A stretch of 64,000 nucleotides of DNA, taken from positions 1 to 64,000 of the forward strand of contig BAAIJX010000010.1 in NCBI GenBank assembly GCA_054600435.1, written 5' to 3'. Shown piece after piece: positions 1 through 12,131 of this stretch. Each line of letters begins with the position of its first letter. Position 1 is the stretch's first letter. A program made the translations under genes and the position numbers. Source of the stretch: Neophaeotheca triangularis. Taxonomy: Eukaryota. The notes beneath the pieces were generated by a model, which did no database searches, had not been told where the DNA came from, and saw only the letters and a list, made by a program, of their open reading frames with translations.

Positions 1-104
1 TTTATTTTTTAGAAAAAAAGACAGATACTGCTGAATTATTATTAAAAATTTTAAGTAAATAATGCCAGACTAATCTAATTATTATTAAGGATAAAAGTAT
101 ATTG

Positions 105-147
105 TTTTTTTTTTTTTTTTTTTTTTTTTTTTTTTTTTTTTTTTTTT
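105..147. repeat. Poly-T homopolymer (T43) downstream of nad6
   Basis: Counted directly. Confidence 0.95.
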
Positions 148-178
148 ATTTATTGGCTGCAGTAATACACATAGCTTG

Positions 179-910
179 TTATTTTTTTATTGTTATTACA
201 ATGGCCCCTACCATGGCTAATAAAAGAATTATAGATGTTATTATTAATCATAGTGGATAACTAGTATATATAATATTACCAATGCTAGTTATATGAGATG
301 TCTCTGCAAGTGCTCCATCTCATATTTGAGAGCTTACAAATAGTACATTATTACTATCATAAGCCCATTGCCCAGAGTAAAAAAAGCTTTTAATAGGATA
401 TAAATTGCTGCTTATATTCATTGCATCATTACCTGTATCCAGTCCTTGTACTAATGAATTTTTTCCTTCTACAGATAAAGATGAGGAAAAGTTACTGTTT
501 ACTCCATAATCATAAAGATTATATATTTCACTGGCATTGGATGGCAATAATTTATATAGCGTGATGTTAAAGAAAATACCAATTGTTATAGCTAAAGGTA
601 TACTATTGCTACTGTCAGTTACAAGCTCAGATATTCTAACGTTGATTAACATTAAAATGAATAAAAATAATATGGATACTGCTCCCACATATACCAATAA
701 ATAGGAGAGTCCTATAAAATTTATACCTAGCATCATTAAATATCCTGCTATATTAAGAAATAGTCCTATTAAAAATAGCACAGATACAATAGGGTTTTTG
801 CTAACAATAACGAATATCCCACACAATACAGACATCCATGTTATAAAGGTTAGTAAATTGTAGCTTAATCCGTTAGTTAAAGTTTCGTTAAATATGTATA
901 GGTTAAGCAT
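179..910 (-). CDS. nad6: NADH dehydrogenase subunit 6 (243 aa, code 4)
   Basis: Motifs KNPIVSVLFLIGLF and YLLVYVGAVSILFLFILMLIN. Reading through TGA at 320 gives WDGALAETSHITSIGNIIYT...LLLAMVGAIVITIKK, with TAA at 179-181. Confidence 0.97.
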
Positions 911-1298
911 GGGTTTTAAATTTATTAATTATCTCATTTTACTAAAAAATATACAAGGCAAGGTACAGTTTTTTTTTTTTTTTTCAGAATACTGAAAAGA
1001 GAAAAAAAAAAAAAAGAAATTAAACAGCGAACAACAGTCTCCTGAAAAAAAAAAAAAGTATAAAGAGAAAACAAACAATTTTGCAGCAAATTATAGTAAC
1101 GAAAGTATATTGCATTGTGAAAATTATAAAAAAAAAAAAAATAAGTTTATTTACGCGAAATAATATATAAATAAATTACATTTATTATTTTATTATCTTT
1201 ATGCAAAAGGTATTACAGTTTATCTCCTTGTTTACCAAAACGAAAAAAAAACATAAAGGTTAGTTGATGAAGGTTAATTAATGAAGTTAATTAACAGT

Positions 1299-3221
1299 TT
1301 AGTAAGTACTTACTCATCCTTTTAATCCAAAAGACCCATTACGCGTCTTTGAAGCTAAACTTGCATGTTGCACATTTGGTTTGCTGCATCCTCTCAATAT
1401 AGCAGAAGAAATACCCTTATAAGAAGAGTCTATGTTTTTTATACTTCCTTTATTTTTTATTTTAAATACAGATCTTGAAGCAGTAAGTCGTTTAGACAAT
1501 CTACCCCCTGCTTCAACTCTCACACCATTTATAACTTTGTGCTTTAAAGTGTCCATAACAAAATTTTGTATTTCACTAGTATTTAATTTTAAACCGTTTA
1601 CTTTTCTATTATGTACACTGTCTATATATCTTGAATAATGCAATTTTGAAGAAGGGGTCTTAACTAGTCTAATAGATTTCTTTAACACCTTCAAAAGTCT
1701 GTTGTTTCTATTTTTTAATTTTGTTTTTATAGATTCTAAAAAGTTATCGTTGTTAAGATGTAGGTATTTCAAATTTATAAAGTTTAATTCAACTTTTTTT
1801 TTATAGATTCTAGATAAAAGACTTTTAAGACCTAGTGAAAATCAACTTTTTAATTTATTACTATTAATAAATAATAATTGCATATAATACAAAATAAGGG
1901 TTTCTTTTTTGTACAGCTTTCTTAGATAATTTTTGTAACACTTTAATTCATATTTTTTGAAATTTTTGTTTTTTCATCTAAGACTTTTTAATATTAATCT
2001 TTTATGGGTTCTGGCTTTTTTCATAACCTCTATACTTTTTTTAGTTATTAAACTTATTTTACGCATCATATTATAACGGTTTTTATTTTTATACACTTTC
2101 ATTATTTTTTTTACACCTCTGCTAGTTCCAGTATTATCATTTGATATACCAAATAACATTTCAGGTGCAAATGAAAATGCATTGTAAGGCCATTGGTTAT
2201 AAGTTTCAAATGCATTATTTTCTAAATTATGAGATAGGGGGTAAGTTTTACAAAAGTTTATTAATTTGTAAAAAAAAAATTTTTTTTTCTTGTTATTTTT
2301 TACTTTTTTACTTTTTTTTTCTTCTTGAGTATGCTCTTTATCCAGTAAACTGCCGGATAGCTCAGAGGGAGATAAAGGCAAGAAACATGAAGCCGCTGTT
2401 TTTCCTTGTTTACTATTTTGCGAGCAAAGAAAAGGCGGTATAATTCTTTTATTTACTTTACTTATTTTACTATTGTAATAATTAAGTAAAGAAACTCTCC
2501 TTTTTCTTACTACGGTTTTATTTAAACGCTTTTTACGGCGTATGGCTCCACCACCACCCACCATACTTTTTTTCATTCTATGTTTTTTTACTACTTCTTT
2601 TTTGTTATTTAAAAGGTTTTTACCCAAATTTTTTAGTTTAAATAGTAATAGTTTTTTATTTCTATTGTACAGATAAACATTTAATATAACCTTGTTATTA
2701 GTGTGTTTAATCTCTGGTTTACTAGGCAGTATACGGTTCAGTGACAACCGTTTGAATCTTACCTGAACACGGCTAGATTTTTTTCTTTTGATTTTGTTTA
2801 GATTAAAATAACTATTTATTAATCTATTAACTGTTTTATTTGATCTAGAAAAAAGTTTGTTATTGTTTGTGTTGTATGTATAAACACTATTTATTCACTC
2901 ATTTGAAGCAGGTACATTATGTTTTTGTTCACCCTGCAAGTTTATAATTTGTTCAGGTTCATTCAACTCTAGTGTGCTAGTATTGTTTAATTTTAATAAA
3001 CTAGGATGGAAAACCATATATTCAGGTATTTTTTGCTCCATATTAGTAGTTGTGGCTGAAAAATTTTTGGTATTACTTGGATCACCGATTGCTATTAAAT
3101 TGTTTAAATTATGAAAGGGGCTTTTCGAGACCCTTATTTCATCATTTATGGCGAGAGAAACATCATTAGGATACGTTGCATTGTTGAAATAATCTGTAGT
3201 TTGTAGTATGTTGTTTTTCAT
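1299..3221 (-). CDS. rps3: Mitochondrial ribosomal protein S3, free-standing (640 aa, code 4)
   Basis: ORF pieces 2895-3221, 1974-2747 and 1314-1772 share one frame and are separated only by TGA. Motifs: PASNEWINSVYTYN, KHTNNKVILNVYLYN, IYKKKVELNFINLKYLHLN, GVRVEAGGRLSKRLTASRS, SKTRNGSFGLKGWVSTY*. Confidence 0.93.
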
Positions 3222-3878
3222 TGGTTTATCTTATAATTTAAATATATGTTTTCATAAAAGCCAGTTTTTTATCCTAATTATATAAAGGCATGTAGCATAC
3301 AACTACCTGTTTATTCCTAAAAAAAAAGATATATATACGCTGGTATTTGCACCGGCAATATATGGATAGTATTTCTGGCATAGCACTAAAAAAAATTCCT
3401 TATTATTTTCTCTTTTTTCCATTATAACATTTGGCAAATAAGGTATAGTTTTCTTTGACAAAAAAGGCACAATTCTTGTACTTTTTTTAATACAAATTTA
3501 TTTTTTTTTCTATTGAACACAAATAAGCCAGTTTCAGTAGCTCTTATAAAACTAAAATAAAACTTAATAAAGACTAATTTTTTCATTTATGTAGAAATTT
3601 TCTGTTAATATTCAAAGATTTATCTTTATTTAGTATATTCAAAAAGCACTGGACTTTCCCTTTAACTAAATATAGTATTATTACTTATATTAATTTCTTA
3701 CAATAAGGTGGTTAAATTTTTTGTGTCACAACATACTTTAATTTTTTGTTCTTTTTCCTGTTATCCAATTACGTCCAGGAAGTAGCTATTTTTTTTTTTT
3801 TATTTGCATTTTTTTTTATTTCTGTTGATCTAACATAATAGAAAAAATAACACCAACCTGTGTTACCTTAAGTAAAAT

Positions 3879-4646
3879 TTAGTGTAACTCAAGAGCATCT
3901 TTTATGTAAGAACAAGATAATACTACAAAAACCTGTGCTTGAATAAAGGCTATTCCTAACTCTAAACCTGAGAAAGCTATTATAAAAGCTAAAGGGAAAA
4001 ATCCTAAAAAGAAAAACACAAATCCTGATGTCATGATGTTATATGTGAAACCACTTAAAATGTTTAGAAGCATGTGCCCTGATAGTATGTTTGCTGCTAA
4101 TCTTAAACCTAATGATACATTTCTAGCAAGGTAAGAAATAAATTCTATAAGTACCAATAAAGGTAATAAACCTAATGGACAACCAGCAGGAACAAATAGA
4201 GAGAAAAATTCTAATCCATGTCTGCTAAGCCCCAGTATAGTAGCTCCAAGAACAACTGAAAAACTAAGTGAGAAAGTTAAAATAAAATGGCTAGTAGAGG
4301 CGAAACTATAAGGAACCATTCCTATTAAATTATTTACTAAAATAAATACAAATAGCACATATATAAATGGAAAGTATACTTGTCCTCTTTTTTCGTTTAT
4401 TTGGCTGATAACTATACCATGCACAGTAGCATATATAGACTCCTGAGATATTGATCAAGCATTTGAAACTACTTTATTGTTATTAGTAGAAACAAGATTT
4501 AACACAAAAACGATATATCCTGCTATAGTTAGGTATAGGCCAATATTTGTTAAAGATAGTGATAGATTTCCCAGAATAGGAGCATTTAGGCTTAATAAAT
4601 TTCTTATTTCAAATTGATCTAATGGACTTGTTATAAAATATGTCAT
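3879..4646 (-). CDS. atp6: ATP synthase F0 subunit a (255 aa, code 4)
   Basis: SPLDQFEIR N-terminus and SYLARNVSLGLRLAANILSGH; the two ORF pieces join in frame through TGA at 4455. Confidence 0.98.
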
Positions 4647-11460: not shown

Positions 11461-11532
11461 TAATTCCTCGATGACTTGAACATCGAACATACTCTTATCA
11501 AAAGTACACTTTACCTATTAAGTTAAGGAATC
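11461..11532 (-). tRNA. trnI: tRNA-Ile (GAU)
   Basis: TACTT-TTGATAA-GAGTA anticodon arm, CGATG-TTCAAGT-CATCG T arm. Confidence 0.95.
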
Positions 11533-11540
11533 CGTATATA

Positions 11541-11612
11541 CAAGAGCACTCAGACTTGAACTGAGAATTTGAAGGTTGAAGCTTCCTATTTTGCCAATTA
11601 AACTATACTCTT
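11541..11612 (-). tRNA. trnW: tRNA-Trp (UCA), reads TGA as Trp
   Basis: GAAG-CTTCAAC-CTTC anticodon arm, CTCAG-TTCAAGT-CTGAG T arm. Confidence 0.95.
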
Positions 11613-11744
11613 TACAGTCGCAACAATCAAAAAAAAAAAAAAACGGGTGTTTGTTACAACTATATTTATTCTACTTTCTATCTTACTACTACCCCTAATC
11701 CTGTTTCTGTGGTACCTCATATTACCGTCAGCTATCAAGGAAAG

Positions 11745-11825
11745 CGGAAAAGAATGGAATTGAACCATCAGGTGTTTAAACACAATATTTAGCAAATATC
11801 TCGCCTTACCAATGGCAACTTTTCC
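11745..11825 (-). tRNA. trnS: tRNA-Ser (GCU)
   Basis: GGAAAAG/CTTTTCC acceptor stem, anticodon loop TTGCTAA, variable arm GTGTTTAAACAC. Confidence 0.92.
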
Positions 11826-11938
11826 TGTTAATTATACTTTTTTTTAAGTATGTTACAATAAAAATCTTGTTTTTTTGTCACCTATCTCCAGGAGTTTGCT
11901 GTATGCTGTACAGGACAGTGGAGGAAACAGAATGGTCA

Positions 11939-12011
11939 CGAGTTAAGCCGGCTTCGATCCGACATCCTCTTTCTCGACAAGAAAGCCCTTTACCAATTAA
12001 GCGATTAACTC
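11939..12011 (-). tRNA. trnD: tRNA-Asp (GUC)
   Basis: GAGTTAA/TTAACTC acceptor stem, CTTTC-TTGTCGA-GAAAG anticodon arm. Confidence 0.93.
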
Positions 12012-12131
12012 TTTTTTTTCTCTTTTTTTTTTTTTTTTTTTTTTTTTTTTTTTTTTTTTTTTTTTTTTTTGTTATTTTTTTTTTTTGTTTTTTTTCCCAA
12101 CGTAACCCCCCCCCCCCCCCCCCCCCCCCCC
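12012..12131. repeat. Homopolymer junction between mitochondrial and nuclear DNA: T-rich tract (T48 at 12023-12070) then C26 (12106-12131)
   Basis: Counted directly; base composition switches here. Confidence 0.95.

Follow-up and report, generated by a model that had tools for sequence, protein, structure and literature searches.

In the filamentous ascomycete Penicillium rubens, a 10-kb nuclear mitochondrial DNA segment (NUMT) has been reported from PO212/S27, with reads at 750x vs 60x and a presence that varies among strains and so implies a recent origin; the proof offered in that report is by polymerase chain reaction (PCR), with products for both junctions and for the insert as a whole, alongside strain CH5, in which the site is empty (Requena et al. 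2025, PMC12125605). In another ascomycete, Anisogramma anomala, 20 NUMT loci ranging from 522 bp to 220 kb are described, on average 89.8% identical to the mitogenome, their genes being mostly broken, their surroundings rich in transposable elements and poor in genes, their sequence spanned by nanopore reads and the loci themselves conserved in a second isolate (bioRxiv 10.64898/2026.10.20.760510). A survey of 20 fungal genomes gives a total NUMT content of 0.078-77 kb, mostly <1.5 kb, and adds the caveat that "numts" without a placement may be genuine mitochondrial sequence and that counts shift with genome version and completion (Hazkani-Covo et al. 2010, PMC2820518). The present work concerns the first 64,000 nucleotides (nt) of contig BAAIJX010000010.1 of Neophaeotheca triangularis, referred to as the window, in which about 12 kb of intact mitochondrial DNA runs without a gap into gene-dense nuclear DNA. 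The reading that we favor, at a probability of roughly 0.7 with the sub-case of a library chimera included, is that this join is a false fusion of two contig ends, one from the organism's own mitochondrial DNA and the other from its nuclear DNA.

The likeness of this locus to the P. rubens NUMT, as the latter is reported, lies in a mitochondrial block of ~10 kb among the nuclear genes of a filamentous ascomycete and in a pile-up at mitochondrial depth; the difference is that P. rubens has both junctions in one scaffold, confirmed by PCR, while one junction is visible here, made of T48 and C26 and known from the assembly alone (PMC12125605). With A. anomala it shares the occurrence of large mitochondrial blocks in the nuclear assembly of an ascomycete, but the block here is 100% identical, fully intact and adjoins housekeeping genes, in contrast to the loci portrayed for that species. 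The caveat of the 2010 survey refers to unplaced scaffolds of an animal genome, whereas here the fusion is gap-free and to a gene-bearing nuclear contig. The preliminary description of this DNA, made from its letters, had held that, for a compact ascomycete genome, a NUMT of this size would be remarkable, a claim that is weakened by the PCR-confirmed 10-kb NUMT set out for P. rubens (PMC12125605).

The join and its low-complexity bridge

The window was compared with four runs (X1, X2, X4 and X18) in the form of k=31 contigs, which cannot pass 31 or more identical letters; repeats were masked and loose ends dropped there, and the contig pieces listed were 32 of 2,665. X1 and X2 are two public isolate runs of one organism, with ~33 Mb of contigs each, and were aligned to 1-20000, and X4 and X18, which are metagenome or host-associated, were also aligned to the window.

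It can be read from the guanine and cytosine (GC) content that the compartment changes between two adjacent 1-kb bins, mitochondrial on the left and nuclear on the right, with GC of 0.24-0.33 in all bins to 12000 and 0.50-0.61 in all bins of 12001-64000. The intact mitochondrial block (1..12011, minus strand) is recognized by its low GC, its open reading frames (ORFs) under translation table 4, its Pfam domains, its transfer RNAs (tRNAs) and X1 contigs with 0 differences. It is followed by a low-complexity bridge of 120 nt (12012-12131), which starts directly past trnD with a T-rich tract (12012..12095, plus strand) of the form T8 CTC T48 G TTA T12 G T8. Homopolymer comparison of the two parts places the compartment boundary at 12096..12131 (plus strand), as CCCAACGTAA and then C26; T48 (12023-12070) and C26 (12106-12131) are thus separated by a T-rich linker of 35 nt. 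Nuclear-type, microsatellite-rich intergenic DNA, identified by its repeats, comes next (12132..12610, plus strand), and the k=31 contigs break here too; gene-dense nuclear DNA, with strand mixed or unspecified, is seen at 13125..64000 from Pfam domains, intron signals and word depth. The earlier account of mitochondrial DNA ending at T48, with C26 next and nuclear DNA after it, therefore holds. A single junction is in view, position 1 of the window being already inside mitochondrial DNA.

The two parts differ sharply in their homopolymers. In the mitochondrial part (1-12011) there are 32 runs of 8 or more letters in 12 kb, the longest being T43, A17, C5 and G5, vs 1 such run in the 51.9 kb of the nuclear part (12132-64000), where the longest are A7, C7, G9 and T6. 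The T43 run, which the preliminary description overlooked, lies at 105..147 on the plus strand, 31 nt past the nad6 stop, and reads as A43 on the coding strand. Two contigs, X1 record 1 and X18 record 9, align from 162 and extend into it by 36 and 44 further letters respectively, which suggests that T43 was read in two independent samples, with at least about 30 T in X18. As k=31 contigs of both runs enter this tract, T43 is not peculiar to the source assembly. Because the mitogenome carries T43 elsewhere and nuclear T runs reach 6 at most, the T48/T12/T8 tract can be regarded as mitochondrial in style. C26, however, is in the style of neither compartment, as C runs otherwise reach 5 letters at most in mitochondrial and 7 in nuclear DNA.

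Beyond C26, four compound microsatellites with units of four or five nucleotides lie within 500 nt of the boundary, clustered in 450 nt: (GCCT)n at 12161-12178, (GGTGA)8 at 12362-12402, (TATC)n at 12438-12483 and (CCTA)n at ~12588-12606. The join is consequently placed at sequence of the kind that confuses assemblers, namely T48, T12, T8 and C26 plus these four microsatellites, and the k=31 contigs of X1 and of X2 break there independently. Contig ends are expected at such sequence on both sides, while an insertion needs a double coincidence: its mitochondrial breakpoint must hit precisely one of just two T runs of this order within 12 kb, and its nuclear breakpoint a C26 without parallel in the 52 kb.

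The proposed course of events is that, during assembly or scaffolding, a mitochondrial and a nuclear contig would have been joined end to end; the mitochondrial piece would end at the very long T run and the nuclear piece at the C run beside the microsatellite cluster. Mitochondrial DNA is ~30-45 times commoner than nuclear DNA in the libraries, so that it would be the likeliest partner wherever a chimeric fragment or a low-complexity k-mer ties the end of a nuclear contig to something else. A variant of this false fusion is that the junction existed physically as a rare hybrid molecule in the DNA preparation, a ligation chimera of the library or an amplification product that is not part of the genome and was trusted from one or a few long reads. 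Such a molecule explains how unlike homopolymers (T vs C) could be joined gap-free without a shared repeat, but nothing separates it from the broader false fusion, of which it is a sub-case counted within the figure given above; taken by itself it is decidedly unlikely.

Sequences that would cross the join were sought in several ways. No contig bridging 12011-12489 was found among the pieces compared, a result of little weight as k=31 contigs cannot cross T48. The X1 nuclear contig (record 8, 66,892 nt, depth 130.2) begins at ~12370, within (GGTGA)8, and several other contigs of nuclear depth match the microsatellites only. A 26-mer across the T/C core had 0 matches in metagenome contigs, which is weak evidence, the nuclear DNA of the organism being hardly sampled there, and a 28-mer in trnD had 0 matches in metagenome, viral and prokaryote genome contigs, which carries no weight either way; the same is true of nad2, for which viral contigs held no relative.

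Loose contig ends at 12160 (X1) and 12161 (X2) start in the (GCCT)n microsatellite, lead into GC-rich sequence unlike the window and probably come from other loci that share (GCCT)n/(CCTA)n. These ends, together with the joints 12181>12579, 12604>12161 and 3918>12587, were considered as signs of another, true left flank of the nuclear DNA and were rejected, being matches of 21-25 nt to (GCCT)n/(CCTA)n. The pair (GCCT)n and (CCTA)n recurs jointly at several other genomic loci, as judged from nuclear-depth contigs that match these pieces only. At 12584, three such contigs (130.2 + 126.3 + 123.3) add up to the depth of 379.9 recorded there. An attempt to read the coverage of 12132-12361 from the mean depth of bin 12007-12673 (95.8 in X1, 46.5 in X2) was dropped, since the outcome depends on where the repeat mask starts and both readings fit.

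Depth and divergence in independent runs

Over 1-20000, X1 shows 0 base differences from the window, and the sampled words of 8100-16100 are present at fractions of 0.95 in X1 and 0.70 in X2. Among the contigs listed, word depth in X1 is 4,800-6,137 for mitochondrial contigs vs 130.2 for the 66,892-nt nuclear contig, and in X2 it is 2,972-3,456 vs 116.7 for the long nuclear contig, giving mitochondrial to nuclear ratios of ~45 in X1 and ~28 in X2. Summed per bin, X1 word depth is 4,593-13,281 left of the join and 130-135 right of it (130.2-134.6 over 12674-20000), falling ~45-fold within the 667-base bin that contains the junction; the corresponding values for X2 are 3,192-7,336 on the left and 100-124 on the right (116.7-123.5 from 13341). 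The preliminary description had proposed that depth be compared left and right of the join, and an abrupt step in word depth is indeed seen, but an identical NUMT would give the same step.

X2 differs from the window in its mitochondrial part by 5 substitutions and 6 indels among the differences listed, and in its nuclear part by many. At these 11 listed sites the window has the main mitogenome form of X1, and one of them, position 5235, is also a minor variant within X1 (depth 290 of 11,979). As the window has the X1 form where X2 differs, an insertion, if there was one, must postdate the divergence of two strains of one species; and with 0 differences from the high-copy contigs of X1, the block is the present-day mitogenome of the strain and not a diverged copy. 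The block thus carries no distinguishing substitutions, no decay and no nuclear copy number, and appears at mitochondrial-level depth only; such distinguishing marks are usual in NUMTs, though not required of a very young one.

Since X1 and X2 each contain both parts, both halves of the contig come from one organism, which also settles the earlier suggestion that mitochondrial and nuclear genes be checked for a common taxon. This bears directly on a cross-organism chimera or contamination, in which the mitochondrial block would stem from another organism than the nuclear DNA. The presence of the mitochondrial part in X4 and X18 with almost no nuclear part speaks for such an origin, as does the best database relative of the rps3 gene in the block, which is only 63% identical. 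However, both parts occur in two isolate runs of one organism at depth ratios of ~45 and ~28, and X2 departs from the window in the mitochondrial and the nuclear part alike, as expected of a sister strain. In X18 and X4, moreover, the mitochondrial part is found at a depth of ~3-17 in most bins and the nuclear part is essentially missing; a nuclear genome 30-45-fold rarer would therefore lie below assembly depth in these runs, and its uncovered state is no evidence on the join. A mixture of two organisms is accordingly highly improbable.

The explanation that competes most directly with a false fusion is a real, very young and strain-specific NUMT, in which a double-strand break within microsatellite-rich intergenic DNA would have taken up at least 12 kb, so recently that no substitution has yet arisen. 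We consider this unlikely, though it draws on evidence of several kinds. The assembled sequence is gap-free across the 120-nt bridge, both halves belong to the same organism, and the T tract is mitochondrial in style while the DNA past C26 is nuclear in style, so that no simple collapse on one shared homopolymer is at hand. Precedents are furnished by the strain-polymorphic 10-kb NUMT of P. rubens, which is reported as PCR-confirmed and at mitochondrial-level depth (PMC12125605), and by the A. anomala loci for which spanning nanopore reads are described (bioRxiv 10.64898/2026.10.20.760510). On the other hand, the 12 kb show 0 differences from the mitogenome of the strain, the breakpoints coincide with extreme homopolymers on both sides, and the second junction is not in view; the lack of a bridging X1 or X2 contig among the pieces compared and of the junction 26-mer in metagenome contigs adds weakly to this. 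Put as a statement on the history of the strain, a real join would mean that it took at least 12 kb of intact mitogenome into a gene-dense region after its split from the sister strain and acquired at the junction a C26 found in neither parent sequence, and this fuller statement is a shade more doubtful still.

In favor of the false fusion, the intactness of the genes, the zero divergence, the main X1 form at the 11 listed sites, the depth step, the homopolymer bridge and the single visible junction all fit, and the mostly small NUMT totals of the fungal survey (PMC2820518) point the same way. Several considerations weigh against it nonetheless. The missing bridge has little weight, given that k=31 contigs cannot cross T48. 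The depth step, the zero divergence and the intact genes are expected of a very recent NUMT as well, because k-mers of an identical NUMT collapse onto the mitogenome, and the P. rubens NUMT is reported to show this depth pattern (PMC12125605). The left piece ends in T and the right piece starts with C, for which plain collapse on a shared repeat is insufficient; a false join therefore needs an extra assumption, be it a chimeric fragment or long read, linkage through read pairs, or a T run on the nuclear side that is not in view. Double-strand breaks able to capture mitochondrial DNA may, moreover, plausibly arise in microsatellite-rich DNA, and a real, recent and strain-polymorphic 10-kb NUMT is on record in an ascomycete (PMC12125605).

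On balance, the artefact is better supported than the NUMT, short of proof. We infer that no cellular molecule carries this junction, and likewise the assembly step responsible for it. The preference for an artefact over a young giant NUMT, already voiced in the preliminary description, agrees with the zero divergence, the ~45-fold drop in depth, the oddity of C26 and the want of a bridging contig among the 32 of 2,665 pieces, none of which excludes a very recent NUMT.

Genes and open frames on the two sides

Mitochondrial ORFs were read under table 4 and their domains assigned by Pfam. The block holds seven standard protein genes and an intron ORF, all on the minus strand and each with a terminal stop only, in agreement with the earlier statement of seven mitochondrial protein genes free of premature stops. 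Along the minus strand the order is trnD, trnS, trnW, trnI, trnS, trnV, cox1, nad2, nad3, atp8, atp6, rps3 and nad6, and there is no ribosomal RNA gene in the 12-kb block.

From the left end of the window, nad6 (179-910) is followed by rps3/VAR1 (1299-3221), which encodes 640 amino acids, is free-standing and not within an rnl intron, and is rich in lysine and asparagine over its N-terminal two-thirds; the 63% identity of its best database relative extends across 85% of the query, and the hits of that search are unnamed or "hypothetical protein" entries. Exact copies of the nad3, atp6 and nad6 proteins occur in the sequence collection, on contigs of no more than 6.6 kb, whereas that of atp8 is absent from it. 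The atp6 gene lies at 3879-4646. At its 3' end (3894-3918), ~25 nt ending at 3918 are common to a nuclear-depth X1 contig (depth 129.5), and an X2 contig also matches to 3918 and then continues as GC-rich, coding-like sequence; this shared stretch may reflect either a true but short NUMT at another locus or similarity by chance. Next come atp8 (4787-4960), assigned by the Pfam fungal ATP8 family (PF05933, E value 8e-24), nad3 (5430-5810) and nad2 (5811-7526). An open frame of 70-80 amino acids lies between nad3 and atp8 (5111-5353, minus strand) and has no Pfam match.

The cox1 gene is split. Exon 2 occupies 7636-8505, and exon 1 shares one open frame (9126-10892) with a double-LAGLIDADG ORF; the two frames split the Pfam COX1 profile between them at position 210, and PF00961 matches in 2 stretches. 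The intron, with approximate limits of 8506..10058 (minus strand), thus harbors this LAGLIDADG ORF in intact form. The preliminary description had spoken of an intact group I intron. The split cox1 and the intact LAGLIDADG ORF bear out the intron, but an Rfam search for a group I ribozyme in it matched no model even at E <= 0.1. A further open frame (8539-8916, minus strand, 125 amino acids), again with no Pfam match, is situated in the 3' part of this intron.

The six tRNAs named earlier were recovered by ARAGORN at 11189-12011 (V, S-uga, I, W-uca, S-gcu and D), with trnD (11939-12011) closing the series. The Rfam gathering score is attained by three of them, and in a search by E value the tRNA model matches five of the six, the sixth being matched only by the tRNA-Sec model, below the cut-off.

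On the nuclear side, the genes recognized by Pfam are ankyrin, Xrn1, RBBP4-like (WD40), SEP-UBX, Oxa1, DUF3405, AMP-binding/acyl-CoA synthetase-like, GH2 glycosidase and DNA ligase. The ankyrin-repeat gene (13125-13781) lies ~1 kb from the join. The GH2 gene is split across frames by short introns that read GTGAGT...CTGAC...TAG and GTAAGT...TAG, CTGAC being the branch site, and these signals substantiate the earlier claim of nuclear DNA with spliceosomal introns. The fungal assignment of the window rests on these intron signals together with the Pfam fungal atp8 and VAR1 families. In the 52 kb of nuclear DNA no further mitochondrial fragments were found apart from two chance matches of 17-27 nt.

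Beside the junction, X2 differs from the window by 17 substitutions and 7 gaps over 744 nt (record 23, 13096-13842), and further to the right by 39 differences over 6,076 nt (record 24, 13925-20000). The intergenic DNA that adjoins the join appears to evolve fast.

Consequences for the contig and the strain

For now the contig is to be treated as chimeric. If the join is an artefact, the contig should be split within 12012-12131 and its left part filed as mitochondrial before NUMT counts, annotation and submission. Left in place, the mitochondrial genes would be misread under the nuclear code and annotated as nuclear genes that are broken, with distorting effects on read depth, variant calls and NUMT surveys.

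If the join were true, it would not be the first of its kind, but a further and very fresh case of the process shown in P. rubens and A. anomala, notable only for its youth and for the odd C26 homopolymer at the junction. It would then count as one of the freshest and least eroded large NUMTs observed in fungi, and the mechanics of insertion, such as filler synthesis or breakage at homopolymers, would be open to study in this strain.

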